Source of the DNA: Patescibacteria group bacterium
Lineage (GTDB): Bacteria; Patescibacteriota; Patescibacteriia; UBA1558; GWA2-36-10
Length of the DNA: 64,000 bases
Assembly (NCBI GenBank): GCA_041650755.1
Contig: JBAZKN010000005.1
Span: 580 to 64,579 of the forward strand
Direction of reading: 5' to 3'
A model generated the notes under the pieces. The model had not been told where the DNA came from, made no database searches, and saw only the letters and a program-made list of their open reading frames with translations. The translations under genes were made by a program, and so were the position numbers. Below, in pieces: positions 19,588 through 42,920 of this stretch (its first letter is position 1; every line of letters starts with the position of its first letter).

Positions 19588-21033
19588 TTATCCCAACATA
19601 GTCAACCTTGGCATACTAAACTGATGCTCCAGTATCTTCATAATCAGCATAGAAAAAGCATCGGCTAGGTCATCGTGTTTTTCGACCCCAAAGTTAGTTA
19701 TTTCCTGTATAAGTTCTTCGGCTCCGTGACGAGGGAAAACTACATAACCTCGTTTAACAGAATTTGAAGCTATGGCTAATCGTGATCTCTTGTCTAAGCG
19801 TCCGAAATTAACTCCTTCTACTTGCATACAGTAATCATCTTGTAATTGGTGGATAAAAGCCCGTTGGTACCCAACGTCTTCTACATAAACATCAGGATAA
19901 TCTCCTTTACGTATACTATTAGCTAAACTTTTAACTGCTTGAATAGCGTCTGGGAAAGTCAGACGTTGGTTAATGGGATGGGGCAGAATATAGATTAGGG
20001 GACGTTCGTCAACAATATAAACTAAAGCCGCGACCATAGCTGTATAATCAGCTGTGGTCTTTTCAGAAATAGCTAAGTCAATACCAATAGCTGGGAAGAA
20101 AAAATGTTCTCGACTTTTAGGGATCTCATCATAGTAGCATAGCCACTCTGGATGAATCACTCTTTCCGAGTTAGAGATAATACGCAGTAAATACTCCCTA
20201 TACCAGGCTGTATCATTTCCCACTCGCTTTTTAAGATTTCCAATACTTTCGTTATCTGGATATTTCCCAGGCCAAGCACACTGGTTGTTGTCATCTAACA
20301 GAGGATAGGAACGATATATGCCTTTGAGATTATTATCTTTAATACCCTGTTGTAATCGCATTAACACTGAATCTTCGTGTAAAAGATTGCCCACTACAAT
20401 AATGCGAGTGTTTAAGTCTCCGGCTGGAATAACATCTCCTACCAGCCATTGATGAGTCTTGTCCCGACTTTCTTTGGTCTTTACAGATTCCAAATCTTCC
20501 ACATCATCGCAAATAATTAAATCTGGTCTATATTGCCCATGTCTTAAACCCCTAATACTTTGTTCAGTAGAAGCGGCTATGATCCTAGCGTCATATTTAG
20601 GGATAACTAGAGCATAAGAACCCCATTCATCAGCTTGCTCTTCAAAAGGTCCTAAGTCAGCTCTAAGTAGTTTATTTTGCTCTAATTCTCGTTTAAGGTT
20701 CATTAAGTGCTGCCTAGCCTGTCTTTGGGTCTGACTAAGCATAACCACAAACTTCTTTTTCTGTTGTCCTAGTATTGCCCAAATTGGGTATGACATATTC
20801 ATAATCGTGGATTTTCCGGATCCACGGAAGGCCACTATAACAGCCATAGGAATACTTTCGTCTTCGGTTATAGAAAATAATTCTTTATGAAATCTGGCCG
20901 TCTCGTGAGTCACATACTTGGCAAAGTAGAGATGGAAAAATAGTAAATGACTTTGTCTAGTGATGGCTGTCCGGACTTTCCGGTCTTGGTAGACTTGCCT
21001 CAGTAGTTGAGGCGTTAACATTGTTGGGTTCAT
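19588..21033 (-). CDS. Phage terminase large subunit-like ATPase/nuclease
   Basis: Walker A 'AFRGSGKST'. Walker B-like 'LIICDDVED'. Acidic residues in the C-terminal nuclease-like half. Size and order fit terS-terL. Confidence 0.55.
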   Translation of the reverse strand: MNPTMLTPQLLRQVYQDRKVRTAITRQSHLLFFHLYFAKYVTHETARFHKELFSITEDESIPMAVIVAFRGSGKSTIMNMSYPIWAILGQQKKKFVVMLSQTQRQARQHLMNLKRELEQNKLLRADLGPFEEQADEWGSYALVIPKYDARIIAASTEQSIRGLRHGQYRPDLIICDDVEDLESVKTKESRDKTHQWLVGDVIPAGDLNTRIIVVGNLLHEDSVLMRLQQGIKDNNLKGIYRSYPLLDDNNQCAWPGKYPDNESIGNLKKRVGNDTAWYREYLLRIISNSERVIHPEWLCYYDEIPKSREHFFFPAIGIDLAISEKTTADYTAMVAALVYIVDERPLIYILPHPINQRLTFPDAIQAVKSLANSIRKGDYPDVYVEDVGYQRAFIHQLQDDYCMQVEGVNFGRLDKRSRLAIASNSVKRGYVVFPRHGAEELIQEITNFGVEKHDDLADAFSMLIMKILEHQFSMPRLTMLG

Positions 21034-21439
21034 ATATTTGTTGTTCTTTCTCGTCAGAGTCAGCGTGCAAGGCGGCTAGTTTTAAGGCCTCGGTCACGAC
21101 TGCTTGTTGCTCTGGCGTTAATACCTGGTTAGATTCTTCAAGTTTGGCGGTTACTTGGAGTTTAGTGGTGTATTGCGGATGGTGATGTTTGAGCCACATA
21201 ATAATGGCTGTCAGATTACGATCTTTAATAGCGGTAATTAATTGGGACTCCGCCATGTCGTTTATGAGCAGTGATCCTTGTAGTATGGCCTGATCAGCTT
21301 CTTTGGCAAAAGATTCGTTGTCTTTACGCAGACGATAATAGGTCGCTCTACTGATGCCAGACTTTTCACACGCTATTTGCACTATAGGAGTTTTCTTGAG
21401 CTGTTCAATCAACTCATTTTTTTGTTGCTTACTTATCAT
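20957..21439 (-). CDS. HTH DNA-binding protein (possible terminase small subunit)
   Basis: 'IACEKSGISRATYYRLRK' helix-turn-helix. Overlaps the terL start. Confidence 0.4.
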   Translation of the reverse strand: MISKQQKNELIEQLKKTPIVQIACEKSGISRATYYRLRKDNESFAKEADQAILQGSLLINDMAESQLITAIKDRNLTAIIMWLKHHHPQYTTKLQVTAKLEESNQVLTPEQQAVVTEALKLAALHADSDEKEQQIYEPNNVNASTTEASLPRPESPDSHH

Positions 21440-22766
21440 GACCGTGTAATTTAATAGTTTTTTTACCAGTTAGTTTTTTCCAACGCTTTTTGATCACTTC
21501 TGTATAGACGGGGGATTTTTCCATGATATAGCATCTGCGCTTCATTTTGGTGGCCGCTATTAACGTTGAACCAGAGCCACCAAATGGCTCGACAATGAGG
21601 TCATCGCGCTTGGTAAGGACTTTGATATATGGAATAAGAATTTCTACTGGTTTGGTGCCGAAAATCACTCCTTGACCAGAGCTTTTCTCGTCCGAGGCCT
21701 TATAGTCAATAAAGTCAGTTGGGGCGTACTTCTTGCCTTTTTGATAGCCTTCCCAATGGGGTTTACCGGCTATGGCGTATAAGGCGGTTTCGTATTCATT
21801 TTGAAGTGGCGTTTCTTCTGTGGATAGATTTAGTTCTAAACTGTCTTTACTACTGCCCACCATAGCTATATCGTGTTTTGAGAAAAATTTATACTTAGCC
21901 GCAAAGCCCTGGGTTCTATTGGGTAGTCGCCAAACTATCATATTTTTAACCTTCCAATACTTTTCCATTTCTGCCCAAATAGTTCTAAGATTTTTCCAAT
22001 TCTCATAGACTATGATATGAAAATCATCTTTGGCTATTTTGGCAATATTTTTCATCCACAATTCAGTAAAATTATCAGGCAAACTATCTGTACCCAAATA
22101 CCGTCTATCTCGCTTATAGCCGAAGCCCTCGCTAGACTTATGTTTCTTTTTACCTTTTAAATAATTTAATATATAAGGTGGATCGGTTAGACACATGTCA
22201 GCACTAACACCATTCATTAATTTTAGCATGTCGGCCTCAATAGTGGAGTCACCACACATCAGGCGACTGCCATCTAACTCATAAACATCACCTTTTTTAG
22301 TTTGAATGTTTTTAATATCTAATTTAGCCAGTTCTTTTTGGAGGTCAAATTTTTCTGGTTCTATATCTATATCAAAGATATCATCCAGTTCTTCGCTGCT
22401 GAAACCAAGATTTACTAGGAACGACTCGTCAAATTCAGCTAGTAGCTTAAAGTCAAATTCACCAGTGTTTTTATTGAGCCTTAGATTAAGCTCTTTTTCT
22501 TTTTCTAGATTAGGAATATTGACATAGACTACTGGCACTGTCTTATATCCCAAATCTTTAGCTATTTTGAGTCTAAAATGACCGCCAATGACCACATTCT
22601 CCCGACCTTTGGCTGAATTGCAGATAATAGGGTCTACTAGTCCATATCTGTTAATGCTGTCTGTTAAGTCCTGGATAGCCTTTTGACTCCACTTCCTAGG
22701 GTTGTAGGAAGCGGGACTTAATACCTTAGGATCAAGGTATTGGATTTTGAGGTTGTTTTTGTCCAT
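21429..22766 (-). CDS. ParB-like nuclease domain fused to an N6-adenine/N4-cytosine DNA methyltransferase
   Basis: N-terminal ParB-N 'VVIGGHFRLKIAKDLGY'. Methyltransferase motif IV 'CLTDPPYILNY'. Motif I 'VEPFGGSGST'. Confidence 0.7.
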   Translation of the reverse strand: MDKNNLKIQYLDPKVLSPASYNPRKWSQKAIQDLTDSINRYGLVDPIICNSAKGRENVVIGGHFRLKIAKDLGYKTVPVVYVNIPNLEKEKELNLRLNKNTGEFDFKLLAEFDESFLVNLGFSSEELDDIFDIDIEPEKFDLQKELAKLDIKNIQTKKGDVYELDGSRLMCGDSTIEADMLKLMNGVSADMCLTDPPYILNYLKGKKKHKSSEGFGYKRDRRYLGTDSLPDNFTELWMKNIAKIAKDDFHIIVYENWKNLRTIWAEMEKYWKVKNMIVWRLPNRTQGFAAKYKFFSKHDIAMVGSSKDSLELNLSTEETPLQNEYETALYAIAGKPHWEGYQKGKKYAPTDFIDYKASDEKSSGQGVIFGTKPVEILIPYIKVLTKRDDLIVEPFGGSGSTLIAATKMKRRCYIMEKSPVYTEVIKKRWKKLTGKKTIKLHGHDK

Positions 22767-22793
22767 GGTTTTATTGGTTAATAATTAATCTTA

Positions 22794-23153
22794 TTATCGT
22801 TTTTTATCTAGAATTCCGGCTAGCTTAAGGAACATTTCAACGGCCTTTGGATTACCTTTAGTTGAGGCATTGCTATATAGCCCTCCGATGGCATCGGGAA
22901 CGCGATCTTTTACCCAAACACTTATTTCGCTTTGCACAAGTGGCCAGAATTGCACGTCTTTCGTCCAATCAGTTAAGGTGTCCTCACAGACTCCGATTTG
23001 TTTTGCAAATTCCTTTTGTGTTTCGGGATTACGAAACTTATAAGGCGTAGCAAACCATTTGGCAAATAGTATAAATTCAGATACCCGCTGAACCCCGGGC
23101 ACGACTTTTATAGAATCGGAGTCAATCGGAGCGAGGGTTTTGTTTTTAGTCAT
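22794..23153 (-). CDS. Small HTH-containing phage-like protein
   Basis: 'TQKEFAKQIGVCEDTLTDW'. Confidence 0.3.
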   Translation of the reverse strand: MTKNKTLAPIDSDSIKVVPGVQRVSEFILFAKWFATPYKFRNPETQKEFAKQIGVCEDTLTDWTKDVQFWPLVQSEISVWVKDRVPDAIGGLYSNASTKGNPKAVEMFLKLAGILDKKR

Positions 23154-23252
23154 AGCTTAGTAATTAGTTAAATGAAAAAAGAGCCATTATTATCATAGCT
23201 CTTTTTCAAATAGTCCATTCCGAGTTCCGCTCGAGTTCCGTTTTGTAATGTT

Positions 23253-24392
23253 TTAGCTTATCTTAGCAATTTTTCTTTTGCTTCTTTTTAAGTCATTTCG
23301 ATGGGCCTTTACACATGCGATTGATCCACATGTTATTTGCCATTTGTTGCGGGGCTTAAAATTACTCTTACAAATAGGGCATGTTTTATTAATAAATCCA
23401 GTTAAAACTTGCTTTACAGTTTCTTCTTTTTCAGTCAGAAAATATAAGAAAGCATTAATAATATAAATCATGTAATGCGTGTCCTCAAGACTAGCAATAT
23501 CATTGTCGTTTAGAGATTTAATATATGCTGTTTTAATTTTATTACTGCGAGCAGATTCGTTAATCAAGCTTTTTTTCGAAATAAATTCTCGCCAGTCATA
23601 TATAAATTCTTTGGTTAGTTTATACTTATCTAAGATTTTTTTTGCCCGTTCTTTAAAAATAGGGGATATATCAAAATCGTACTCCTGTCCCCATTCTATT
23701 TTTGAAGGTTTATGTCCATATGCCTCTCGGTATTGTGTATATTTTTCTCTTTTTTTCTTTTCAAATAATTTATGTATTTTTTCCATCTCATGGTATATCT
23801 CTAGAAATTTATATAAGTCAGCTATCCTTTTCTGGATGGACGCTATTATTTTTTTTCTATCAATATCATTTTTGTGTTCTTTAATCCATATCAAATATGG
23901 TAGAGCAATTTTTATGGCAAGTATTTGCTTTTTATCGTATAAAAATTCATATTGTTTTTTTATGGCACTAGCACTGGTGTAAAAATCAGAAAACTGTCTT
24001 TGCTTCCAGGCAAAAGATTTCTGTTGCGACGGCCACTCTACCATATTGTTATCAAAATAATAATCGAGCCAATGATCATTAAGTTTTCCGAGACTACCGA
24101 TGCAATAGTAATTTTTTCTGTCCAATTTTATAATTTTAAATTTGTCTAAATCCTTAGGGTGGATATAACGCCATTCATTTAGTCCGTTAAAAGAAGCATA
24201 TACTCTTTTAAACTCCACAACCCCTAAATATACTTTTAAGGCGGGGAAGACTAATTTATGCTTATGTAGCTCCTCTAGGGTATTTTTATCAATCTTAAGC
24301 CCGTTATCTTGGCAGTAGCCAACGAAAAAAGACATATGGATTAAACCCCCCTGATTGAGCGGCATTTGGGTTTTAAACTCTGTAGCTTCCAT
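23253..24392 (-). CDS. Hypothetical protein with a C-terminal Cys4 zinc-ribbon
   Basis: 'CPICKSNF...CGSIACVKAH'. No other motifs recognised. Confidence 0.3.
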   Translation of the reverse strand: MEATEFKTQMPLNQGGLIHMSFFVGYCQDNGLKIDKNTLEELHKHKLVFPALKVYLGVVEFKRVYASFNGLNEWRYIHPKDLDKFKIIKLDRKNYYCIGSLGKLNDHWLDYYFDNNMVEWPSQQKSFAWKQRQFSDFYTSASAIKKQYEFLYDKKQILAIKIALPYLIWIKEHKNDIDRKKIIASIQKRIADLYKFLEIYHEMEKIHKLFEKKKREKYTQYREAYGHKPSKIEWGQEYDFDISPIFKERAKKILDKYKLTKEFIYDWREFISKKSLINESARSNKIKTAYIKSLNDNDIASLEDTHYMIYIINAFLYFLTEKEETVKQVLTGFINKTCPICKSNFKPRNKWQITCGSIACVKAHRNDLKRSKRKIAKIS

Positions 24393-24458: not shown

Positions 24459-24487
24459 TTGACAATCTTTGTATATTTGTATATAAT
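24459..24487 (+). promoter_or_regulatory. Consensus sigma70-like promoter upstream of the lexA-like gene
   Basis: TTGACA (24459-24464), 17 nt spacer, TATAAT (24482-24487). ATG lies at 24496. Confidence 0.5.
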
Positions 24488-24495
24488 ACTAGTGT

Positions 24496-25167
24496 ATGAA
24501 ATATACCAAAAAACCAACAAAAGGGCAACTGGAAGTACTGGATTTTATTCAGAAATATATAGAAAAGCACAATATTCCACCACTTATTGAGGACATAAAA
24601 TCAGCTTTTCAGTTTAAATCAACACGCTCTGTCACCCAATATCTAGATGCTTTAACCAGACAAGGGTACATAGAAAGGAATCGTAAACAAAAAAGAGGCA
24701 TACAGTTAGTTAATCATTATCAAGAACCAGGGCTAGACACTGTTTTAGTTCCTTTGCGTGGCACAGTTTCCTGTGGTCAGCCTAGTTTCTACGCTGATGA
24801 CAACATAGAGAATTTTTATTCAGTTGATAGCAGGTTATTGACCAGTAAAGTGAATAATTATTTTTTGGTGAGATCTTGCGGAAACTCCATGAACAGAGCG
24901 GGTATAGAAGATAATGATTTGGTGTTGGTAGAAAAAACTGATTATTTTGCAAACGGAGATAGGGTTGTAGCAGTTATTGATGGTCTGGCTACTATAAAGA
25001 ATTTTTCCAAGGGAGATTCTTCAATAGTGTTATACCCAGCTTCTTCTGATGATAAGCATAAGCCTTTAATAGTTAAAGACGATTTTAATCTGGTAGGTAG
25101 GGTAGTCGATATATTGCCAGATCCGGAATCTTTTAATGATATCAGGTATGAACCTGTAAACCAATAA
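24496..25167 (+). CDS. lexA: LexA-family repressor (winged-helix N-terminus + S24 peptidase C-terminus), either host LexA or a prophage CI-like repressor
   Basis: N-terminus 'QLEVLDFIQKYIEKHNIPPLIEDIKSAFQFKSTRSVTQYLDALTRQGYIER'. Catalytic Ser in 'CGNSM'. Lys in 'VVAVIDGLATIKNF'. Confidence 0.75.
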   Translation: MKYTKKPTKGQLEVLDFIQKYIEKHNIPPLIEDIKSAFQFKSTRSVTQYLDALTRQGYIERNRKQKRGIQLVNHYQEPGLDTVLVPLRGTVSCGQPSFYADDNIENFYSVDSRLLTSKVNNYFLVRSCGNSMNRAGIEDNDLVLVEKTDYFANGDRVVAVIDGLATIKNFSKGDSSIVLYPASSDDKHKPLIVKDDFNLVGRVVDILPDPESFNDIRYEPVNQ

Positions 25168-25181
25168 TTAATCAAGCAAGC

Positions 25182-25424
25182 ATGGCAAATTATCACGTAA
25201 CAAAAAACAAAGATATTGGCAAATGGCAGGCTAAGAAAGAAAAGGCCGATAGAGTCGCCGGCTTTTATGACACACAAGCGGAAGCCGAGGCAGCAGCGAA
25301 ACAATTTTCAGCTAATAGCGGCGGTGGTGAGGTAAGGATCCACAGCCCGAAAGGTCCAATTAGGGATAGTGATACAGTTCCACCAGGAAATGATCCTAAT
25401 CCGCCTAAAGACAGGAGATTTTAA
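25182..25424 (+). CDS. DUF2188 family protein
   Basis: 'YHVTKNKDIGKWQAKKEK...GFYDTQAEAEAAAKQ...GEVRIHSPKGPIRDSDTVPPGNDPNPPKD' matches the DUF2188 consensus pattern. Confidence 0.6.
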   Translation: MANYHVTKNKDIGKWQAKKEKADRVAGFYDTQAEAEAAAKQFSANSGGGEVRIHSPKGPIRDSDTVPPGNDPNPPKDRRF

Positions 25425-25428
25425 TCGT

Positions 25429-25857
25429 ATGGAAAAAAAATTAAAACATTTAGAATTCATACAAAACGTTATTAGCAGGATGGCTAATAACCTTTTTCTG
25501 TTGAAAGGATGGGTAGTTACTTTGGTAGCAGCACTTTTGGCTTTATTGGCATCAAATAATGCTGGTACCCAATTTATCTTTATAGCTCTAGTTCCAATTA
25601 TAATTTTCTGGCTTCTAGACGGCTATTTCTTGTCTCAAGAAAGAATGTATAGGGATCTATACAAGGATGTTGCCAAGAAGCAAGAGGATCAAATTGATTT
25701 CTCAATGGATGCTAGTAAATATAATACAGGTAGAAACAGATGGCTTAACTGCTTCTTTTCTAAAACACTGGTAATATTTTATGGTCTGCTTCTGCTATTA
25801 TTTTTAATAATTATTTACTACAATTTTGATATAAAAATTTCAATAAGTATAGGATAA
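25429..25857 (+). CDS. Small 2-3 TM membrane protein, candidate pore-forming/SLATT-like effector
   Basis: Amphipathic N-helix then TM1 'WVVTLVAALLALLAS', TM2 'FIFIALVPIIIFWLL', and a C-terminal hydrophobic helix. Start taken at ATG 25429, immediately after the DUF2188 stop. Confidence 0.35.
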   Translation: MEKKLKHLEFIQNVISRMANNLFLLKGWVVTLVAALLALLASNNAGTQFIFIALVPIIIFWLLDGYFLSQERMYRDLYKDVAKKQEDQIDFSMDASKYNTGRNRWLNCFFSKTLVIFYGLLLLLFLIIIYYNFDIKISISIG

Positions 25858-25861
25858 ACAT

Positions 25862-26422
25862 ATGTCAAGAAAAGTTTTTTACAGTTTTCATTATGAGCGG
25901 GACGCTTGGCGTGCTGGTCAGGTGCGAAACTTCAATTTACTCGCTGATGAGGATGAATATGGAATTATCGATTCAGTCGAGTGGGAAAAAATTAAGAAAA
26001 AAGGTGATGAGGCCGTAAAAAGTTGGATAAAAGATCAGCTTAAAAATACCTCTGTCACAGTTGTGTTGATTGGTGCAGAAACATCGGAAAGGCCATGGGT
26101 CAAATACGAAATTGAACAAAGCATAGAAAAAGGCAATGCTTTGTTGGGCGTTAGAATACACTCGGTTAAAACCCAGAAAAAAGAGACTGATTCTCCAGGA
26201 AAAAATCCTTTAGATTTGATTTCTCTAAAAAATGGTAAGCCTGCATCATCATTATACAAAACTCATGACTGGGTATCTGATGATGGTAGAAAGAATTTAG
26301 GTCAATGGGTTGAGGATGCATATAAAATTAGTGAATCTAAAACTAATTTAGGTACCCACGACACTAGCCCTACGCCAACCCCACGTAGCTTTACGCCTAA
26401 ATCACCCTGGTCTGTTTTATGA
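25862..26422 (+). CDS. TIR-like domain protein (DUF1863 / Thoeris ThsB-like)
   Basis: 'KVFYSFHYERDAWRAGQVRN' and 'NTSVTVVLIGAETSERPWVKYEIEQSIEKGNALLGVRIH ... GKNPLDLI' closely mirror the ThsB/DUF1863 TIR consensus, as far as it can be recalled. Confidence 0.6.
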   Translation: MSRKVFYSFHYERDAWRAGQVRNFNLLADEDEYGIIDSVEWEKIKKKGDEAVKSWIKDQLKNTSVTVVLIGAETSERPWVKYEIEQSIEKGNALLGVRIHSVKTQKKETDSPGKNPLDLISLKNGKPASSLYKTHDWVSDDGRKNLGQWVEDAYKISESKTNLGTHDTSPTPTPRSFTPKSPWSVL

Positions 26423-27105
26423 TATCAGATCAGGATAAGGATTGGTTAAGTAAATATTATCCTGGTTTGATAGTAAGCGGGAAAGAAATTTCTGGCGATA
26501 TTGAATTTGTAGCTAACTATAATAAAGACACTGACCAGTTTTCAATTTTGTATAATGGTACACCAGACTCCATTGATGGTTTAAAGTTAAGTGGTAAGTT
26601 TTCCGTTATTATTTCTGAGAGAACTAACAAAGCTTCTTCAGATCTTCCGGCACTGATTGTTAAAAATATAGATACAACTACGGATCGTCATTTTAATCAA
26701 ATGGACAAATCAGCTTGCCTTTGTAGTCCTTTAGAGGAGGGAGAGTATCTATTGCCAGAATTTAGTTTCAAGCTTTTTTTGGAAGAGCTGGTCATTCCAT
26801 TCTTGTATGGTCAAGTTTTTTATGATAAAAATGGTAAGTGGCCGTGGTCTGAATACTCACATGGTGCCGTTGGCATACTGGAATCATATTTAGATATATC
26901 CGATGCAAGTAAAGCCAGGGCTTCTATTGAAAAATTACGTTATGATACAAATTGGCCACGAGTTGAACAGGTATTAAAGCAAAAATCTTATATTAAAGGG
27001 CATACCCCTTGTTTTTGTCCAAAGGCTGATCAGATCAGGCGTTGCCATCCAAAGGCTTGGCAGGGTATTAATAAACTAAAGAATGATATAAAAGATTCAT
27101 ACTAG
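26419..27105 (+). CDS. Hypothetical protein, translationally coupled to the TIR gene (ATGA overlap)
   Basis: No recognisable motif. Cys/His pairs 'CLCSP' and 'CFCP...CHP'. Confidence 0.35.
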   Translation: MISDQDKDWLSKYYPGLIVSGKEISGDIEFVANYNKDTDQFSILYNGTPDSIDGLKLSGKFSVIISERTNKASSDLPALIVKNIDTTTDRHFNQMDKSACLCSPLEEGEYLLPEFSFKLFLEELVIPFLYGQVFYDKNGKWPWSEYSHGAVGILESYLDISDASKARASIEKLRYDTNWPRVEQVLKQKSYIKGHTPCFCPKADQIRRCHPKAWQGINKLKNDIKDSY

Positions 27106-27107
27106 AT

Positions 27108-27311
27108 ATGGGTAGGTATAGGGGAAAAAGTAGTTTTCATCGTAACTTAGGACATGATCTATATACAATAATATATTGTTCATTATTTTTTCTTTGTATA
27201 AAAATTTGGGGGGCAAATGTTATTTTAAGCAGCTGGCTTGTTTTGCTATGGCCTATAAGTTATTTCTTAGTAGGCTTTATATTAAGAAAAATAGGAGTTT
27301 GGAAGTATTAA
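27108..27311 (+). CDS. Small 2-TM membrane protein
   Basis: 67 aa with two hydrophobic helices. Confidence 0.3.
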   Translation: MGRYRGKSSFHRNLGHDLYTIIYCSLFFLCIKIWGANVILSSWLVLLWPISYFLVGFILRKIGVWKY

Positions 27312-27327
27312 TATATGCTCACAGAAT

Positions 27328-28293
27328 ATGTCATTAATATTGGGTATAAATCTTACAGATAGAATAATTTTAGCAACTGATAGTAAAGTTACTAAATCAG
27401 TTAATGGTAAACGAGAGGTAGTTGGCTATTGTACAAAATTAGTTCAGTATAATGATCGGGTTTTAAATGAAGATAAGGTTGTAAAAAATAGAAAGGATTT
27501 AGGTAACTTTATTTCCTGTATGTATGCTGGAAACAAAGATTTTTCTTTTTTTATACATCAAAAATTATCGGTTGCTTTTGAAAAGGGCGTATTATCTACA
27601 GACATCAATGTTTTACAGACACAAATTGATGATTTTTTTAAAAAAATTACTCCTGAATATGATGGAGTAAAAAAATGTCTTATGATATTTGCAGGCGTAT
27701 CATTGAGTGGTTCCATAAAGATATTTAGTTTTAAGCGTCTATCAGATTTAATAGGTCCCCAAGCTGGCCACGTAGAAGATCCTAATATAGTAGGGGCATT
27801 ACAATTTGCATCACAAGATTCAGATACTACTCCATTGATGAATAGAGAAAACAATTATTTTGTGCCGGATCAGAAATTATTTTCTTTTGAGATAGACGAA
27901 GATAGACATAAATTTGGCATAGGAAAAATTGGTGGTACTTATTCAGTTGTAGCTGGCGGGTCAACCACCATTGATGAGAATCTGGAAAACAAGATTCTAA
28001 AATATTTTTTAACCAAAAGGGATATTAAAGCCGAGGCTTCGGATATTATAAACTTTATTAGAAGTAATTTTTCCGATAGTATTGGTGGTGCAGTAGTATT
28101 AGGGTATATTGATACAAGGGGTATTCTGACCAATGTGAGTTATCAAGTTGATAGATCAGGAGAAATTAATGATAAAAACTGGTCCATAGAAATTAATGGT
28201 AAAGATTTTATAGCTTTAGATCCGGAAAGCAAAAGAATTGATTTATTAGAATATTTTTTTAATGGTTCAGGCGATAGCGATTGTTTGTTATAG
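27328..28293 (+). CDS. HslV/proteasome-beta-like Ntn-hydrolase-fold protein with a C-terminal extension
   Basis: The N-terminus 'MSLILGINLTDRIILATDSKVT...KLVQYNDRV...YAGNKDFSFF' parallels HslV '[21 protein letters not shown]...RRLYNDKV...FAGGTADAFTLF'. Residue 2 is Ser rather than Thr. Confidence 0.4.
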   Translation: MSLILGINLTDRIILATDSKVTKSVNGKREVVGYCTKLVQYNDRVLNEDKVVKNRKDLGNFISCMYAGNKDFSFFIHQKLSVAFEKGVLSTDINVLQTQIDDFFKKITPEYDGVKKCLMIFAGVSLSGSIKIFSFKRLSDLIGPQAGHVEDPNIVGALQFASQDSDTTPLMNRENNYFVPDQKLFSFEIDEDRHKFGIGKIGGTYSVVAGGSTTIDENLENKILKYFLTKRDIKAEASDIINFIRSNFSDSIGGAVVLGYIDTRGILTNVSYQVDRSGEINDKNWSIEINGKDFIALDPESKRIDLLEYFFNGSGDSDCLL

Positions 28294-29943
28294 GATTTTA
28301 TCCTCAATAAGAAAATCAATCTTGCTAACCTTACTCGGCTGATTTGGATCATTATAAGCTTTAAGTTTTATAGGAAGTGACCCATATAGGGTTATTTTTT
28401 TGTTTAGAAAAACTATCTTATCTATATAGTCCAGTAAAAACTCTCTTTTAGTATTAAAGTTGGTAGCTTGCTCAAATCTTGTTTTAGCTACTTCATAGAA
28501 TTGTTTGACGCTTGTTTCTATTACTTGCTTCTTGTGTAGTCTAGGCATTTTATTTATAAGCTGATTTTTTTGTGTTTTTAGATTATCTATTTCTTTTTCA
28601 CACAGGGAGCAATTTTTGGAATATAAGGTTCTAGTAATTTTGCTCTTGGCGTAATCATCTAGATATTGTTTTTTATCTTTGGTAATTTTTAATATACTAT
28701 TTTCAATATCGCTGATTTCATTTTCTACTTTTTCATGAGTTAAGCCATTTTTAGTTTTCATGTAGTCAGTACAAAGTAGTAATCTGTCAGGATCAAGTAG
28801 CGTGTCTTTAATCATTTTAAAAACACATTTTTCTATTTTTGGTGCTGATACCTCGGGATTTTTACACAAGTATTTATCCATTTTCTTAGAGTGCATCCTG
28901 TTTTTTACCTTTAGCCCACAGTGATAGGCAACTTTGTAAGTTATTTTAGAAGATCCATCTACTAGTTTATATTTATAATATCTCTGATAGGGTATATAGT
29001 TTCTACCGCAATTACCACATCGTATTAATCCAGATAGTAATTGTTCTTCTGATTTTTTCTTATAGACCTTTTTATTTTTGTCCAGTCTCTTTTGGACTTT
29101 ATCAAATAAGCCTTTGGAAATAATAGCTGGAACTTTGACGGCAATCCACTCTGATTTGTCTTTTTCTATTCTTTTGCCATATTTAATTTTATAAATAGAC
29201 TTCTCAGGTTTTTTCTCATATTTAGTTTTATTAAAATATTTTATGCCATAGTAGGTGGTATTGGTCAGTATGTGCCTTAATTTTTCGGTATCCCATAATT
29301 TTAAACCTAAATGAGTTTTAATACCTTTTTCTTCTAAATATACAATTAGTTGTTTCCAGCTTATTCCCTTAGCATATTGCTCATATATGTATTTAACTAT
29401 TTTAGCTTCATCCTTGTTGATTATCATTTTAGCCGGAGTTTTGTTTGTGCGTTTGATATAAGTATAGCCAAACATATTAGCACCACTGTTTAATACCTGA
29501 CCTTGTTTTAGTTTATGGATTTTACCTCTTAGGCTTCTTTCAATTATTTTGGCACGCTCCAGTTCAGAAACCGCACCCAGAACCGTTAAAGCAAATTTGT
29601 TCTCTGGATTATGGACATAATCCTTGCCGTTTATAATAATCTGCTTTTTGTATTTTAGAATCTCAGCAATGATAATTGTCTGGTAAGTTACTTCTCTGGC
29701 AATTCGGTCAGTATTTAAAAAATAAATCGTATCAAATAAATCGCTTTTTAAGTCATCTCTTAACTTATTCATTCCTGGTCTATCCAACTGTGCACCAGAG
29801 TATCCGTCGTCAATATACTCTTTGATTAAAACGTCATTATTTTCTTTTATTTGTTTTTTAAGCTCAGCGATTTGGCTCTCTATGGTTCTTTCTTTTTCCT
29901 GCAGAGCCGAACTAACTCGGGCGTATAGTACTGCTTTTTTCAT
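28288..29943 (-). CDS. Large serine recombinase (resolvase/invertase N-domain + recombinase + zinc-ribbon)
   Basis: 'KKAVLYARVSSALQ' catalytic Ser. Cys-rich zinc ribbon 'CGNCGRNY...YHCG'. C-terminal coiled-coil. Confidence 0.8.
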   Translation of the reverse strand: MKKAVLYARVSSALQEKERTIESQIAELKKQIKENNDVLIKEYIDDGYSGAQLDRPGMNKLRDDLKSDLFDTIYFLNTDRIAREVTYQTIIIAEILKYKKQIIINGKDYVHNPENKFALTVLGAVSELERAKIIERSLRGKIHKLKQGQVLNSGANMFGYTYIKRTNKTPAKMIINKDEAKIVKYIYEQYAKGISWKQLIVYLEEKGIKTHLGLKLWDTEKLRHILTNTTYYGIKYFNKTKYEKKPEKSIYKIKYGKRIEKDKSEWIAVKVPAIISKGLFDKVQKRLDKNKKVYKKKSEEQLLSGLIRCGNCGRNYIPYQRYYKYKLVDGSSKITYKVAYHCGLKVKNRMHSKKMDKYLCKNPEVSAPKIEKCVFKMIKDTLLDPDRLLLCTDYMKTKNGLTHEKVENEISDIENSILKITKDKKQYLDDYAKSKITRTLYSKNCSLCEKEIDNLKTQKNQLINKMPRLHKKQVIETSVKQFYEVAKTRFEQATNFNTKREFLLDYIDKIVFLNKKITLYGSLPIKLKAYNDPNQPSKVSKIDFLIEDKIL

Positions 29944-31621
29944 AGCTTAGTTTATTATATTCTTTATTAGTTATTTGCTTATTATCTAATAATCCATCTT
30001 TTTTATCTTGTCGTTGTAGTTTCTTAAGGGCTTGTAGTCTATTTATCTTATTGGTTATTACAAAAGCTAGTTTAGTATTTTTAATAGTCACAAAGCCGTA
30101 TAGTTTTATTTCATCAACACCTTTGTTATGGATATATTCTATTTTAGAGACGTATCTTTGTAAGAAATCTTTTGTTTTTAATTTAGAAAAATCAGCTTTA
30201 GCATGGTTGGAATAACTCAGCACACTATTTCCTATTTCTTGAGGATTATTAAAAACTGGCATCGATTGTGCCAGTTCTTTGTTTGTTTTTTCCAGTGATT
30301 GTATGTTTTTGTCATAACCATTAACTTTTTCTACATAGGTTTCTCTTTCCAGATCTCCTAAGGAGTATAGATCAACAATTCTTTGCTTTTGTTTTTGGAT
30401 AGATTTTATCTGGGTTTTGATTTGTTTGATTTCTTTTTCAACTTTAGCTTGGTTAACAGCATTGCTTTTGGAAAAATAATCCATACAGTTTTTTAGTTTA
30501 TCGGGATCAAAGACATATTTTTCAATCATCTTGAATATTTGCGGTTCTAATATTTTACTGTTAATTTCCCGGTTGTGGGCTTTATATAAACTACCGCCGC
30601 ATTTATATATTGTTCTTTGATAAATTTTTGTTTCTTTTTTCCTATATACTTTATAACACCTATGATAAGCAAAACATCTTTTATGACATACGCCGCAAAA
30701 AACTATATTGGATAAGGGCTGAGTGTTTTTAGCGTTGCGGTAGCACTCCAAATTATATTTAATTTTACTCTGCACTTTATCAAATAAATCTTTATCAATA
30801 ATTTGCGGAATCTTGATGCCAATCCAAGTTGACCTGTCTGTTGGCACTCGTCGTATAGTTTTACTTCTACCCTCAAGCCGATTTAAAGCATTGGTGTCAG
30901 TTGTAGTATTAAAATATCTTATACCAGTGTATGTTTCGTTATCTAACATTATTCTTATATGATACCAAGTCCATTTTCTACCTCGACGAGGTGGAATATT
31001 TTTTTCTTTTATCTTTTTAACTATTTCTCTGAAACTTATATTACCCTGGGCATAAAGTTTAAAAATATAGTTAACAACCTTAGCTTCTTTAGGATTGATT
31101 TCATATGAAGGAAAGGACTTATCACTTTTGGGAATATAATTGTAGCCATAAATGTTGCATCCGTGTGATAGTAGTTGCCCTTGCTTTAATCTATATTGCC
31201 TGCCTCGCATACTACGTTCTAGTATTTTAGTTTTTTCCAGCTCGGCTACAGCCCCAAGCACCGTTAAAGTAAACTTGTTCTCGGGGTTATGAATATAGTC
31301 CTCGCCGTTAATAATAATCTGTTTCTTATGCCGCAGAATTTCCCCGATGATGATATTTTGGTAAGTGACATCTCGGGCGATTCTGTCAGCGTTATGGAAA
31401 TAGATGCTATCAAATTTATTAGTTTTAATATCTTCCCGTAATTTATCCATCCCAGGTCTACTGAGCATAGCTCCGCTGTAGCCGTCATCTACATATTCTT
31501 TTACTAGAATATTGCCGACTTTTTTGATCTGCTTTTTGAGCTCGTCTACCTGACTTTCTATAGTTCTTTCCTTTTCTTGCAGGCTTGAGCTTACCCTAGC
31601 GTATAATACTGCTTTTTTCAT
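29912..31621 (-). CDS. Large serine recombinase (second tandem copy)
   Basis: 'KKAVLYARVSSSLQ' and 'CGVCHKRCFAYHRC...YKCG'. About 45% identity to its neighbour. Confidence 0.8.
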   Translation of the reverse strand: MKKAVLYARVSSSLQEKERTIESQVDELKKQIKKVGNILVKEYVDDGYSGAMLSRPGMDKLREDIKTNKFDSIYFHNADRIARDVTYQNIIIGEILRHKKQIIINGEDYIHNPENKFTLTVLGAVAELEKTKILERSMRGRQYRLKQGQLLSHGCNIYGYNYIPKSDKSFPSYEINPKEAKVVNYIFKLYAQGNISFREIVKKIKEKNIPPRRGRKWTWYHIRIMLDNETYTGIRYFNTTTDTNALNRLEGRSKTIRRVPTDRSTWIGIKIPQIIDKDLFDKVQSKIKYNLECYRNAKNTQPLSNIVFCGVCHKRCFAYHRCYKVYRKKETKIYQRTIYKCGGSLYKAHNREINSKILEPQIFKMIEKYVFDPDKLKNCMDYFSKSNAVNQAKVEKEIKQIKTQIKSIQKQKQRIVDLYSLGDLERETYVEKVNGYDKNIQSLEKTNKELAQSMPVFNNPQEIGNSVLSYSNHAKADFSKLKTKDFLQRYVSKIEYIHNKGVDEIKLYGFVTIKNTKLAFVITNKINRLQALKKLQRQDKKDGLLDNKQITNKEYNKLSYEKSSTIRPS

Positions 31622-31771: not shown

Positions 31772-32650
31772 ATGAGACAGTCCCAAAACCCTTTTATACT
31801 GTCTCATTTGTCTCATTTTGGTGGAGCGAGTGTCGTGCAAGCAACCTTCACTGGACAGGAGTATGACGAAGAAAATGCACTTCAGTATTATGGGGCTAGG
31901 TATATGGATAATGAGACGGCGAGGTTTGCTAGTATTGACCCCATCATCATAAAAGTAGATTCTGTAAGTAAAGTTTTGAGCGATCCTCAGGCTTTAAATA
32001 GCTATGCCTATTCTAGGAATAACCCAATTATTCTGGTAGATAAGGATGGTAATTTTTATGTGCCATTTTTATCAAATTATATAAATAAAGTGGTTGGTGG
32101 TGCTATAGGTAGATGGATAGTAAATAATCCGAAACAATCAGCTGAAATTGGTTTAGGTTTTGTTCCAGTAGCCGGAGAAGCCAATGATTTAACAGAAACT
32201 ATTAGAGGCAGAGAAACTATCACTGGTAAAGAACTTAGCACCAATGAGAGACTGGTAACCGGTGGAGCAACATTGTTACCTTTTGTTGGAGGTAAGGTTG
32301 CTAGAGAGATGTTAAATAAGAGTGATGAGATTGTTACTTTATATCATGGGACGGGGCATTTTTTTACAGATATAGGTAATGAAGGATTTAAAAATGGAAA
32401 ACTTTGGTTAACTAATTCGTCGGCTTTAGCAGAACATTATTCTGATAATTGGTTGGGAGAAAATTTAGACAAAGGAGTTGTTAGGGTCATGTTGCCGAAA
32501 AGTATTTATGAAAGATTTATAAAAAACGGGAGTTTAATTATAGATAATAAAAATATTGATTCTGATAAATTTTGGAGTGGACTTAATATTAATGAATTAA
32601 AAACAACTTCAGAAGAGGTTATTAATACAATTAATAAATATATACAATAA
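31772..32650 (+). CDS. Orphan RHS C-terminal cassette 2 (short RHS-core remnant + toxin tip)
   Basis: 'FTGQEYDEENALQYYGARYMDNETARFASIDP ... NSYAYSRNNPIILVDKDGN' followed by a unique domain of about 200 aa. Confidence 0.6.
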   Translation: MRQSQNPFILSHLSHFGGASVVQATFTGQEYDEENALQYYGARYMDNETARFASIDPIIIKVDSVSKVLSDPQALNSYAYSRNNPIILVDKDGNFYVPFLSNYINKVVGGAIGRWIVNNPKQSAEIGLGFVPVAGEANDLTETIRGRETITGKELSTNERLVTGGATLLPFVGGKVAREMLNKSDEIVTLYHGTGHFFTDIGNEGFKNGKLWLTNSSALAEHYSDNWLGENLDKGVVRVMLPKSIYERFIKNGSLIIDNKNIDSDKFWSGLNINELKTTSEEVINTINKYIQ

Positions 32651-32651
32651 T

Positions 32652-33092
32652 ATGGACAAAACAGTATTTAAAGATAGATTTCGACGGGCAATAAAAAAAA
32701 CTATTGAATTAGCACAGAAATATGTAAAAGAAAAAATTCCCAAAGATTTTATTATTGATTTGTCGAGGATAGATAGTAAGGATACACATAAGTCTAAGTA
32801 TGAAGGTCGTTATGAGGATTTAGAAAAGGTGATCGAAAAGTTATATCAAGATGGTAGTGTGCCCAGGTGGGTTGATTTAAATGTTAAGACTGTGGAAAAC
32901 GACCTGTCGATTATTAGGTGTGAATATAGTAATATTTTTTTTAATGATGAGAGTAATCTTTTACATGAGGATGAGGGAGTGCCACCATTTCATATATTAA
33001 GTCCACATATACCACCCAGTCATTTCGATTTTGATAAAAATAAAGTTAAAGAGGGTAAATTTAGTATTAAAGATATTCCAAAGGAAGATTAG
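32652..33092 (+). CDS. Candidate immunity protein for cassette 2
   Basis: Starts 2 nt after the toxin stop. Confidence 0.4.
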   Translation: MDKTVFKDRFRRAIKKTIELAQKYVKEKIPKDFIIDLSRIDSKDTHKSKYEGRYEDLEKVIEKLYQDGSVPRWVDLNVKTVENDLSIIRCEYSNIFFNDESNLLHEDEGVPPFHILSPHIPPSHFDFDKNKVKEGKFSIKDIPKED

Positions 33093-33113
33093 TTTTATTT
33101 TGTTAGTAAATAA

Positions 33114-34640
33114 AAATCAGCTACCTATACCTACGATGACTTAAATAGGTTGCTTTCAGCTACAGTAAGCTATATTAATCATCCAGACAAAAACTACACC
33201 CAAACCTTTATTTACGACTCTATTGGTAATATGACCTCAAACTCTGATCTGGGTACAATGAACTATCTAAATAACAATCCTCATCAGCTCACCTCTGTAG
33301 GCTCAAGAAACTTTGTCTATGACAATGCCGGCAACCTTAATAGGGAAATAGGCCTAAGAAAGTACTACTGGGATCATAGAAATAGGCTAAAAAACACCTA
33401 TGATATAGCTTCAGAAAACAATACTTACTATCTCTATGACCATAATAACCAAAGATTCATCAAATGGACTGAAGACTATCTCTACTACCCTCCTGATCCA
33501 GAAGAGCCAACAGAAAGCATAGCAACCAGAGATCTACCTAGTATATCTGAAGAAAGTCTTAGCCAAGAAACCCTTGCTTTAGATGGCACGGGCTACTGGG
33601 CTTGGACTGTGGTTAGTCAAGACAAGTATGTTGATAAGTATTACGAGAAGAATCTCAATAATCAAACCAAGTCTCATGTCTTCCTAAATGGCATTAAAAT
33701 TGCTACAATTAATAATAATGATAATCCCTATTATATTATCAGTGATCATTTAAATTCTAGCAATTTGCTCACTACCCCTACTGGTACTATAGCTGAAGTG
33801 GAGGATTATAAGCCATACGGTACTACTAATTACCAGAATACTATTCAGGATTTATCTGATAATTATGGTTTCACCTCAAAAGAAAAAGATCCTGAAAGTA
33901 ATCTGCAATACTATGGGGCAAGGTATATGGATAATGAGATTGGGAGGTTTACCAGTATAGACCCATTATTGGTAAAGCTTCATAATCCCCAAGAAGTTAG
34001 CAGAATCACAGAGAAAGATTTAAGAATATTGTTAGCTGATCCTCAAAAGTTGAATAGTTATAGTTATGCCTATAACAATCCAATGATAATGAATGACCCA
34101 ACAGGCGAGGGTCCAGTTATAGTATTAATTGTAGTTGGTGTTGTTGAGTTAGTTTTCTCTGCTTGGGATGCCTTAGATACTAGTAATGCTTTATTTGGAG
34201 AAAATGTTAGTACAGGAGATAAAGTAGAATCTGGCGGGTATCTAGTAGCAGGGTTGGCACTTCCAGGTGGAGGTTATGGTCATGTTGATGAGGGTGTCTC
34301 TGCATTGAAAGCGGTCGATAAAACAGTTAGTAAATCTATTAATAATGCTGTAAATAAAATTGGTAATACTATATCTGATCATCTTACTAAGACCGATTAT
34401 GCAGGATTTATCAGAGATTTGAGTAAGGCGCCAGTTTGGAGTGATAATTTGAGAAGAAATTTTGACCATTATGATGAAGTGATGTCTGCATATAAAGGTT
34501 TGCAAAATAACGTGTCAAAGCTCACAAGATATTTAGATAATTATAATTTAGATAAAAAGACAGTTGATACTATAAATAAAGCCATTGATACAGCCAAAAG
34601 CCATATAGACAGAATAGATAATATATTAAGATCACATTAG
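33114..34640 (+). CDS. Orphan RHS C-terminal cassette 3 (no ATG; long RHS homology arm + TM-containing toxin tip)
   Basis: Frame is open from 33114. 33121-33420 is nearly identical at DNA level to 15181-15480 of the main rhs. 'YMDNEIGRFTSIDP...NDPTGEG', then TM 'PVIVLIVVGVVELVF'. Confidence 0.7.
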   Translation, partial: KSATYTYDDLNRLLSATVSYINHPDKNYTQTFIYDSIGNMTSNSDLGTMNYLNNNPHQLTSVGSRNFVYDNAGNLNREIGLRKYYWDHRNRLKNTYDIASENNTYYLYDHNNQRFIKWTEDYLYYPPDPEEPTESIATRDLPSISEESLSQETLALDGTGYWAWTVVSQDKYVDKYYEKNLNNQTKSHVFLNGIKIATINNNDNPYYIISDHLNSSNLLTTPTGTIAEVEDYKPYGTTNYQNTIQDLSDNYGFTSKEKDPESNLQYYGARYMDNEIGRFTSIDPLLVKLHNPQEVSRITEKDLRILLADPQKLNSYSYAYNNPMIMNDPTGEGPVIVLIVVGVVELVFSAWDALDTSNALFGENVSTGDKVESGGYLVAGLALPGGGYGHVDEGVSALKAVDKTVSKSINNAVNKIGNTISDHLTKTDYAGFIRDLSKAPVWSDNLRRNFDHYDEVMSAYKGLQNNVSKLTRYLDNYNLDKKTVDTINKAIDTAKSHIDRIDNILRSH

Positions 34641-34641
34641 T

Positions 34642-35082
34642 ATGATAAATTTAGAAAAGTCATTAAATGAATTAGAAGGCCATATTAACTCTAGCGATCC
34701 TAATGATGCACTTGTTAAAAAAGTGGAAGAAATTAGGAAAAAGAGATTAAAGGATTTAACAGTAGAAGATTTAGCTTTGTTGTTAAGACAGAAAATTAGT
34801 TTGGAGTTTGTAGTGCCATTATGTTTAAACAAATTGGATAAGGACATACTAATTGAAATGGAACGTAGTGGACTTCGCCTGCTGCCAACCTTATTGAAAA
34901 TCGAAAAAGATTTTTGGTCTGTTAATCAAGATTTGTATAATCAAACGGCTGATTTAATGAATGGTAAAATGGATGAAATTATGAACCCAGAAATGGATAA
35001 TCCAGTGGAGCTAGATAGTTATATATCTGATCAGTTGCCAGAGATTTTGAAGTCATATCAAAATTTTAGAGATTTAGAATAA
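34642..35082 (+). CDS. Candidate immunity protein for cassette 3
   Basis: Starts 2 nt after the toxin stop. Acidic helical protein. Confidence 0.4.
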   Translation: MINLEKSLNELEGHINSSDPNDALVKKVEEIRKKRLKDLTVEDLALLLRQKISLEFVVPLCLNKLDKDILIEMERSGLRLLPTLLKIEKDFWSVNQDLYNQTADLMNGKMDEIMNPEMDNPVELDSYISDQLPEILKSYQNFRDLE

Positions 35083-35186
35083 TAAATATACCTTCACTGG
35101 ACAAATAATTTCCCAACAATAAGACAGCACAACTACCTATTATAAATCATCTATACTCCGAGCCTATAAAATTTTCATAATAATTT

Positions 35187-35340
35187 GCCCCTCGACTTCG
35201 CCCTCTCGACTTCGCTCGAGGACTCCGTTCGGGGCATTCTCCTCGTCTAATATATTATAATTGGTTGAAGCTCCTCATGATGAATGAGGAGCTGAAACCA
35301 TGAGCGAGGAGTCCCAAATAGGGACGACGAGTCGAATGGG
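35187..35340. repeat. GC-rich MITE-like element (inverted copy of the element at 63116-63275)
   Basis: 'ctcgacttcgctcgaggactccgttcggggc' and 'ctcctcatgatgaatgaggagctgaaaccatgagcgaggagtc' are the reverse complement of 63140-63250, with the AT-rich centre replaced. Confidence 0.55.
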
Positions 35341-42901: not shown

Positions 42902-42920
42902 AAATTAAATTTCTAACGGA

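Follow-up and report, generated by a model that had tools for sequence, protein, structure and literature searches.

A divergent, probably stand-alone proteasome-like hydrolase encoded on a prophage-like island of a Patescibacteria group bacterium

A 64,000-nucleotide stretch of a Patescibacteria metagenome-assembled genome (MAG; assembly GCA_041650755.1, contig JBAZKN010000005.1, positions 580 to 64,579; hereafter the window) contains, at positions 27328 to 28293 of the forward strand, a gene annotated as encoding a hypothetical protein. The present analysis indicates that the product of this gene (hereafter the window protein) is probably a divergent, stand-alone N-terminal nucleophile (Ntn) hydrolase of the proteasome-beta/HslV branch, with an intact catalytic set, carried as mobile-element cargo independently of the TIR-E2 genes located upstream of it. 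The predicted fold and a set of nearly invariant residues in proteasome register are the evidence on which this assignment chiefly stands. An original prediction, made without database searches, had already pointed to an HslV/proteasome-beta-like protein, and its individual claims are considered with the results below.

Predicted fold

Structure prediction with AlphaFold2 (AF2) using a 62-sequence family alignment yielded a model of the window protein with a predicted local distance difference test (pLDDT) score of 92.2 (at least 90.9 in all five models) and a predicted template modelling (pTM) score of 0.91; prediction with 7 sequences gave a pLDDT of 47.7 and was unusable. In the model, six N-terminal strands (residues 3-8, 13-18, 20-25, 28-34, 38-42, and 61-69) lead into helices H1 (70-85) and H2 (93-110) and a strand at 116-130, and further strands (180-190, 195-202, and 206-211) precede helices H3 (217-226) and H4 (233-247) and the strands 256-261 and 267-270. 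AF2, Foldseek, and BFVD consistently revealed an alpha-beta-beta-alpha sandwich with the proteasome strand order and all of H1-H4, and this predicted Ntn fold covers the protein to about residue 275. The original prediction had named the absence of such a sandwich from a predicted structure as the outcome that would count against it, and the sandwich is present.

The search of the model against the PDB with Foldseek revealed 44 matches at E <= 1e-3, with a best E of 1e-4, and the best 50 matches were all 20S proteasome alpha or beta subunits or Anbu, with probabilities of 0.99-1.00. Template modelling (TM) scores normalised to the target reached up to 0.66 over about 280 aligned columns. Moreover, the best matches in BFVD were phage proteins annotated as 'proteasome beta type-2' and HslV-like proteins.

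Gene and family

27328..28293, + strand: open reading frame (ORF) of the window protein, with an ATG start, 321 aa and a stop codon, beginning MSLILGINLTDRIILATDSKVT

An upstream in-frame start of this ORF is impossible, as the ORF list begins at the first start codon past a stop. Besides the window protein, a word-indexed search of 5.8 billion proteins recovered six relatives of about 300-326 aa at 41-67% identity; since these relatives are few, of this identity, and of similar size, the gene is real, conserved, and rare. An exhaustive HMMER search with the resulting 7-sequence profile extended the family to 76 cluster representatives at E <= 1e-3 (28 at E <= 1e-10), nearly all of which aligned their own residue 1 with residue 1 of the query. 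The family alignment comprised 62 sequences with a mean column identity of 26%, the members being only about 20% identical overall. Nearly all of them came from metagenome assemblies and were unnamed, and no relatives were found among annotated phages, plasmids, or IMG/VR viral contigs. The family is therefore described here as rare and almost purely metagenomic, and it belongs to an already known orphan proteasome-like kind, as a lineage that is new or, at the least, lacks annotation. Because almost all of its members are metagenomic and unnamed, a view of nr in 2021 may not have shown it. A DEPDC5_CTD match of the window protein (E 0.033) was rejected as noise.

Sequence relationship to proteasome beta subunits and HslV

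A Pfam scan of every member showed that 27 of the 62 matched the Proteasome family (PF00227) at E <= 1, with a best E of 6.5e-9, and that each of the other families was matched by at most two members. All nine PF00227 matches that start at the N-terminus placed protein residue 4 on profile position 7. In a search of the family profile against PDB sequences (hmmsearch), 30 of the 32 matches at E <= 1 were proteasome beta subunits (best E 0.0097), with an alignment that starts at the mature Thr1 and places 'TLIlGlNLSDRiyLaADTrvT...KI...isvavAG' on 'TTIVGVKFNNGVVIAADTRST...KL...IWCAAAG'; the 7-sequence profile gave no match in the PDB. Profile-profile comparison (hhalign) of the family with a profile built from 22 real archaeal beta-subunit sequences gave an E of 6.7e-5, and comparisons with the Thermoplasma acidophilum beta subunit (a hand-entered sequence, 98% identical to the database protein P0205) and with Escherichia coli HslV (likewise hand-entered) gave E values of 9.9e-5 and 1.6e-4, respectively. 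These hhalign and profile matches were confined to the N-terminal half and shared one register, in which T/S2 falls on Thr1, D18 on Asp/Glu17, K37 on Lys33, and A67-G68 on the AG of Gly47/45.

The HslV/20S-beta-like N-terminal pattern that had been read by eye from the window protein is thus beyond chance when the family profile is used (hhalign E 6.7e-5 to 1.6e-4), and in the same register. One detail of that reading, the match of KLVQYNDRV with RRLYNDKV, involves a 'YND' whose positions are not conserved in the family, and is probably a coincidence; K37 is the residue conserved in that segment.

Catalytic residues and proposed mechanism

27331..27333, + strand: Ser2 (codon TCA), predicted N-terminal nucleophile and Thr1 equivalent, aligned to the mature Thr1 of beta2 and T2 of HslV
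27379..27381, + strand: Asp18, Asp17 equivalent, invariant (62/62) and aligned to Asp17
27436..27438, + strand: Lys37, Lys33 equivalent, invariant (62/62) and aligned to Lys33
27526..27531, + strand: Ala67-Gly68, equivalent of the Gly47 oxyanion hole, on the AG of beta2/HslV (G68 invariant, A67 in 57/62)
27955..27963, + strand: Gly210-Gly211-Ser212, just before H3 (G211 in 60/62; position 212 is S in 25, A in 10, and T in 8)
28072..28095, + strand: S249-D-S-I-G-G-A-V256, after H4 (G253 in 61/62, G254 in 57/62, I/V252 in 62/62, S/T251 in 44/62)

The Ser at the nucleophile position, as originally proposed, was confirmed as S2 by its alignment with the mature Thr1. Across the family, position 2 is occupied by Thr in 47 members and by Ser in 9 (56 with an aligned N-terminus), and the remaining six are gapped there with N-termini that resemble mis-called starts. 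The Ser2 codon TCA is one base from the Thr codon ACA. G123 was likewise invariant, and N8, L9, A67, K131, F185, G211, G253, and G254 were conserved in at least 90% of the 62 sequences. By their position next to H3 and H4, residues 210-212 may correspond to the proteasome Gly128-Ser129-Gly130, and residues 249-256 to Asp166-x-x-Ser169-Gly170; position 250 is Asp in 16 of the 62 members. As judged from the alignment, the predicted catalytic set (S2, D18, K37, and G68) is intact, with the putative nucleophile directly after the initiator Met and no propeptide.

It could be argued that the protein is a catalytically dead scaffold, similar to proteasome alpha subunits, whose fold has been kept for binding, as the Foldseek matches include alpha subunits too and the equivalents of Ser129 and Asp166 are weakly conserved. 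This is highly improbable, however, given that sequences of only about 20% identity have kept T/S2 after Met, D18, K37, and G68 with little or no variation, and that the N-terminal extension characteristic of alpha subunits is missing.

In the proposed mechanism, methionine aminopeptidase would remove Met1 and thereby expose the serine as Ser1, a step suggested by the permissive nature of Ser and Thr at the second position. The O-gamma of Ser1 would attack the amide carbonyl; Lys37/Asp18 and the free alpha-amine would serve as the proton relay, and the backbone NH of Gly68 as the oxyanion hole. These steps follow the established chemistry of the 20S proteasome. Ser is an accepted alternative nucleophile in the superfamily (Thr1/Ser1; PMC8665760).

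Evidence against the assignment

Several points weigh against the assignment of the window protein as a proteasome-beta/HslV-branch hydrolase and mobile cargo. Searches with the window protein alone gave no significant match in Pfam, NCBIfam, PHROGs, or PADLOC, or among PDB sequences. It had no match to PF00227, which was matched by only one of the 14 members of its own subfamily (E 0.006). The PF00227 gathering score of 22.4 bits was passed by a single member of the whole family (P0073, 36.1 bits), with six further members lying within about 3 bits of that threshold. The hhalign probabilities were only 50-64%, and the profile of the 14-member window subfamily did not match archaeal beta subunits significantly (E 0.15). 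In the structural comparison, the Foldseek TM-score normalised to the query was only 0.3-0.45, because about one-third of the protein consists of insertions. Furthermore, the putative counterparts of Ser129, Asp166, and Ser169 were only partly conserved, and one distant homolog was located amid housekeeping genes (CTP synthase and NUDIX), so that a conflict-related role is not general. Since both the window protein alone and the profile of its own subfamily lack a significant match, the sequence link to proteasome subunits is transitive through more distant members; it is real and weak, and the structural link is the strong one.

Insertions and C-terminal extension

27454..27507, + strand: insertion (residues 43-60, about 17 in all) that separates the Lys33 equivalent from the Gly47 equivalent, seen as a gap in the hhalign alignments
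27718..27864, + strand: mostly helical insertion of about 49 residues (residues 131-179) in the second beta-sheet segment, from DSSP of the model
28150..28290, + strand: C-terminal extension (about residues 275-321, about 45 aa, beta-rich), beyond the part that matches 190-245-aa proteasome subunits
28282..28290, + strand: C-terminal tripeptide Cys-Leu-Leu, the window instance of the family ending [A/L/C]-[E/D/Q]-[L/I]-COOH

The roughly 145 residues by which the window protein exceeds HslV in size are distributed over two insertions and a C-terminal extension, rather than forming one C-terminal domain. A C-terminal extension of 140 aa had been proposed from the sequence, and this is not supported by the model and Foldseek, in which the Ntn fold runs to about residue 275 with internal insertions. 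The first insertion (residues 43-60) is predicted to be mostly loop with one short helix (pLDDT about 80) and is 12 residues shorter in P0006 and P0007. It occupies the site between the Lys33 and Gly47 equivalents at which Connectase (as a lid), PMI-5, and PMI-6 carry insertions (PMC8665760). The second insertion (residues 131-179) comes after the strand that follows H2 and ahead of the strands leading to H3, flanked by strands 116-130 and 180-190, and contains two short strands (132-134 and 167-169) and two helices (135-142 and 152-158); it is much longer in a sister subfamily of about 350 aa. The C-terminal extension is composed of three short strands (286-290, 293-297, and 303-305), one helix (306-311), and a tail (319-320), which is a docked strand in the AF2 model and is predicted there with high confidence. 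The ending of the extension is conserved, with L or I as the last residue in 52 of the 62 members, compared with a background of 18%, E, D, or Q one position earlier (-2) in 30, and A, L, or C at -3 in 43. The conserved C-terminal motif and the insertion at the lid site are the most promising leads for functional work.

No gene for HslU or another AAA+ unfoldase was detected in the 64-kb window, in which the Walker-A ORFs were the terminase, DnaB, and motif coincidences. The same was true of the 19 loci with the gene or its homologs, where one neighbor matching AAA_13/PDC-S06 was an ABC/SMC-type ATPase. The homolog loci came from exact look-up, from 185,579 scanned species genomes (3 loci), and from a scan of metagenomes (12 loci). 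The absence of an HslU/AAA+ partner from the window, which had been noted originally, therefore holds. The accompanying view that a stand-alone peptidase would be unusual was overstated, since the lack of an AAA+ partner has been documented for 22 orphan proteasome-like subfamilies (PMC8665760) and is thus typical.

The two insertions, one at the lid site and one mostly helical, and the C-terminal extension would alter the surfaces that HslV and the 20S proteasome use for ring formation. Because of these added segments and the lack of an AAA+ partner, a ring protease is less likely and a self-contained enzyme more likely; the protein is most likely a self-contained, substrate-selective peptidase or amidase and not a gated degradation chamber. 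A compartmentalised HslV/BPH-like double ring, acting alone like BPH or with an unlinked housekeeping AAA+ unfoldase, would agree with the fact that the nearest structural relatives (20S beta, Anbu, and HslV-like phage proteins) all form rings or helices. In addition, the window is part of a contig of at least 250 kb (249,924), which leaves room for an unlinked partner. Such a double ring is nevertheless unlikely, as the 49-residue insertion and the C-terminal extension are placed on a core that is compact in HslV/BPH, insertions of this type can block ring or double-ring assembly as argued by Fuchs et al. (PMC8665760), and an AAA+ unfoldase co-occurs in none of the 19 loci.

Comparison with known proteasome-like proteins

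The window protein family most resembles the orphan homologs described by Fuchs, Alva and Lupas in 2021, who reported 22 new orphan proteasome-like subfamilies and predicted that more exist (PMC8665760). Those subfamilies possess Thr1/Ser1-Asp17-Lys33-Gly47, no propeptide, insertions at defined sites, and extra C-terminal domains, and they have no AAA+ partner and no informative gene context (PMC8665760). The likeness to these homologs (PHI, PMI-1 to 6, RPC, DAH, and others; PMC8665760) extends over the fold, the catalytic set, the nucleophile after Met, insertions, extensions, the absence of an AAA+ partner, and a rare, patchy distribution, some of them being located on phage-derived DNA. By their described architecture, PMI-2 to 6 differ in carrying an insertion at H3/H4 that the present family does not have, PPH/RPC differ in that H2 is kept in the present family, and HslV/BPH/AAH/CPH differ in being compact. 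In the present family, the 'pore loop' from H2 to S6 is short, and the main insertion is located deeper in the second sheet segment.

HslV (ClpQ) is similar in being bacterial, in its Met-Thr/Ser start, and in sharing the register through Lys33 and the AG of Gly45. It differs in its size (about 176 aa, compared with 321 aa and three added segments in the window protein) and in having Thr where the window protein has Ser, and the adjacent hslU expected of an hslV gene is not seen. The 20S beta subunits and Anbu provided the best structural matches, and beta subunits also the best profile matches, from the mature Thr1 onward. Unlike them, the window protein has neither a propeptide nor an alpha partner, the identity is 10-15%, and the long H5 coiled coil of Anbu is replaced by the small beta-rich C-terminal extension.

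Connectase, an archaeal ligase (DUF2121), is comparable in that it is stand-alone, has an insertion at the Lys33-to-Gly47 site, and possibly has high substrate specificity. Accordingly, the window protein might be considered a Connectase-like, sequence-specific transpeptidase or ligase, in which an amine, and not water, would resolve the acyl-enzyme formed on Ser1. The stand-alone state without an unfoldase, the insertion at the Connectase lid site (PMC8665760), and the conserved catalytic set are compatible with this, and the conserved free C-terminus could serve ligation or recognition. It is rather unlikely, however, because no family member matched the Connectase family (DUF2121) by sequence, no Connectase structure was found among the best 50 Foldseek matches, H1 and H2, which Connectase lacks (PMC8665760), are present, and no linked candidate substrate was identified. 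Moreover, the lid of Connectase consists of two helices placed between S3 and S4, and the enzyme occurs in methanogens only and has MtrA as its substrate.

A broader and similarly doubtful idea is that the family represents an undescribed branch functioning as a single-gene mobile conflict factor. The protein would then be a lid-gated sequence-specific peptidase or a Connectase-like transpeptidase whose [A/L/C]-E-[L/I]-COOH tail docks in its own or a neighbor's active-site cleft as an autoinhibitory or assembly switch, to be released on phage infection so that a specific phage or host target is cleaved or ligated.

As a probable proteasome-beta/HslV-branch hydrolase, the window protein adds a lineage restricted to the candidate phyla radiation (CPR) and metagenomes to the orphan proteasome homologs, the functions of almost all of which are unknown. 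Connectase has demonstrated that such orphans can hide new chemistry, namely specific protein ligation. For experiments, the fully conserved catalytic set, the insertion at the Connectase lid site, and the conserved free C-terminus provide handles, and a role in phage-host conflict can be tested because the gene is placed repeatedly on integrative elements near defence genes.

Genomic context in the window

24459-24487, + strand: sigma-70 promoter with 12/12 consensus (TTGACA-17-TATAAT), 9 bp upstream of the S24 repressor gene
24496-25167, + strand: LexA/CI-like S24 repressor, heading the same-strand array
25182-25424, + strand: DUF2188 / PDC-S16 protein (library match)
25369-25857, + strand: PDC-M50A membrane protein (defence-model match)
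25862-26422, + strand: ThsB-type TIR protein, PDC-M50B (defence-model match)
26419-27105, + strand: E2-like protein (PADLOC 'E2' models, E 9e-30)
27108-27311, + strand: 67-aa hydrophobic ORF, probably with two transmembrane helices, no family match
19588-24392, - strand: upstream side of the island, with a terminase large subunit (phrog_38, E 2e-75), small-terminase-like proteins, and a ParB-DNA methyltransferase fusion
28288-31621, - strand: downstream side of the island, with two tandem overlapping large serine integrases (phrog_95), convergent to the proteasome-like gene

The proteasome-like gene is the last of the same-strand array. The TIR and E2 genes overlap by 4 bp, 2 bp separate the E2 gene from the 67-aa ORF, and 16 bp separate the latter from the proteasome-like gene, ahead of which no convincing terminator was found. 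It is therefore probably co-transcribed with the CI/LexA-like repressor and the TIR-E2 module. At locus L001, the corresponding place upstream of the homolog is taken by a 124-aa hydrophobic ORF, which has no similarity to the 67-aa ORF of the window.

From the surrounding terminase, ParB-methyltransferase, and integrase genes and the chromosomal genes beyond them, it follows that the gene is located on a prophage-like or satellite-like island of about 12 kb. Outside the island are ordinary chromosomal genes (enolase, two cofactor-independent phosphoglycerate mutase (iPGM) genes, a penicillin-binding protein (PBP), a Mur ligase, and DnaB), and no tRNA was found at the island borders.

Relation to the TIR-E2 module and other homolog loci

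According to the original prediction, the protein belongs to a putative immune operon, in which it would act as an effector or processing protease. Under this explanation, the protein would serve the adjacent PDC-M50-like TIR-E2 module, and the five plus-strand genes at 25369-28293 would form one system. The common strand, the tight spacing, the lack of a convincing terminator between the genes, and the one strong promoter upstream at 24459 speak for it, as do the matches of the neighbors to the defence models PDC-M50A, PDC-M50B/ThsB, and E2. Comparison of loci argued in the opposite direction. With more than 306 relatives sharing about 50% identity, the E2-like family is far larger than the proteasome-like family. 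In the five loci examined for two E2 relatives (L017-L021), the E2 gene always overlapped the end of the ThsB_TIR gene, a small gene was present upstream of the pair in some of them, and unrelated genes followed E2, with a proteasome-like gene in none of the five. Conversely, none of the 18 other loci with homologs of the window protein had a TIR or E2 neighbor. Membership in the TIR-E2 module is therefore quite improbable, and the TIR-E2 system is a more widespread feature of this locus than the proteasome-like gene. The window protein is probably not a conserved component of that module but an independent accessory cargo. Conjugation of the window protein's conserved C-terminus by the E2-like protein was considered too, and was rejected for lack of co-occurrence of the two genes.

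In three of the five E2 loci (L019-L021), the TIR-E2 pair adjoined a canonical Thoeris pair (ThsB and the SIR2-STALD ThsA). No CD-NTase, E1, or JAB gene was found near the TIR-E2 pair, and a limited literature search turned up no description of the TIR-E2 pairing. Nothing relevant was found in the literature on a proteasome-like or Ntn protein in phage defence.

An all-against-all BLAST of the neighbors revealed no universal partner gene over the 19 loci. The neighbors of the homologs varied by locus and included the PDC-S06 AAA_13 ATPase, PDC-S19/DUF3644 and PDC-S32, DUF5677, a T5orf172-ResIII protein, an MmeI-like restriction-modification (RM) protein, HEPN_AbiV with a serine recombinase, a reverse transcriptase, and two tyrosine integrases. 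The role envisaged would be that of an accessory cargo of integrative elements, often near defence genes, and from this context a role in phage/host conflict is plausible.

7692-7937 of L008, - strand: small divergent ORF
6856-7116 of L009, - strand: small divergent ORF
5663-5935 of L026, - strand: small divergent ORF

This small divergent ORF was the sole gene to recur in three independent loci. It encodes 81-90 aa, is 46-48% identical among the three, ends in C.C.V.IEVF, and lies 50-66 bp upstream of the proteasome-like gene. Only one sub-clade, whose identity to the window protein is about 41%, has this ORF, which was found neither in the window nor at the other loci and could be a clade-specific regulator or partner. 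Two paralogs of the proteasome-like gene (L022 and L026) were located about 80 kb apart on the metagenome contig Ga0208872_1000033 (143.6 kb), one of them beside a reverse-transcriptase gene.

Other features of the window

Downstream of the integrases, the translations of three plus-strand ORFs at 31772-36623 showed an Rhs-core-like motif, 'LQYYGARYMDNE..RF.SIDP' in two of them and the variant 'LQYFGARYNDNQLGRFVSIDP' in the third. Past the motif, the C-terminal tails of these ORFs were divergent, and the first two were followed by small ORFs (32652-33092 and 34642-35082). As far as the translations indicate, this region resembles a polymorphic-toxin array in which the tips are accompanied by immunity genes. 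On the other side of the island, a single ORF of 2584 aa was found at 8968-16722 (+ strand), and the ORF at 17340-18296 gave a match to phrog_10385, a giant phage-family protein, in the C-terminal part of the latter. In addition, the two iPGM genes (iPGM_N plus Metalloenzyme) are tandem paralogs at 41321-44498 (+ strand), located right after the enolase gene.

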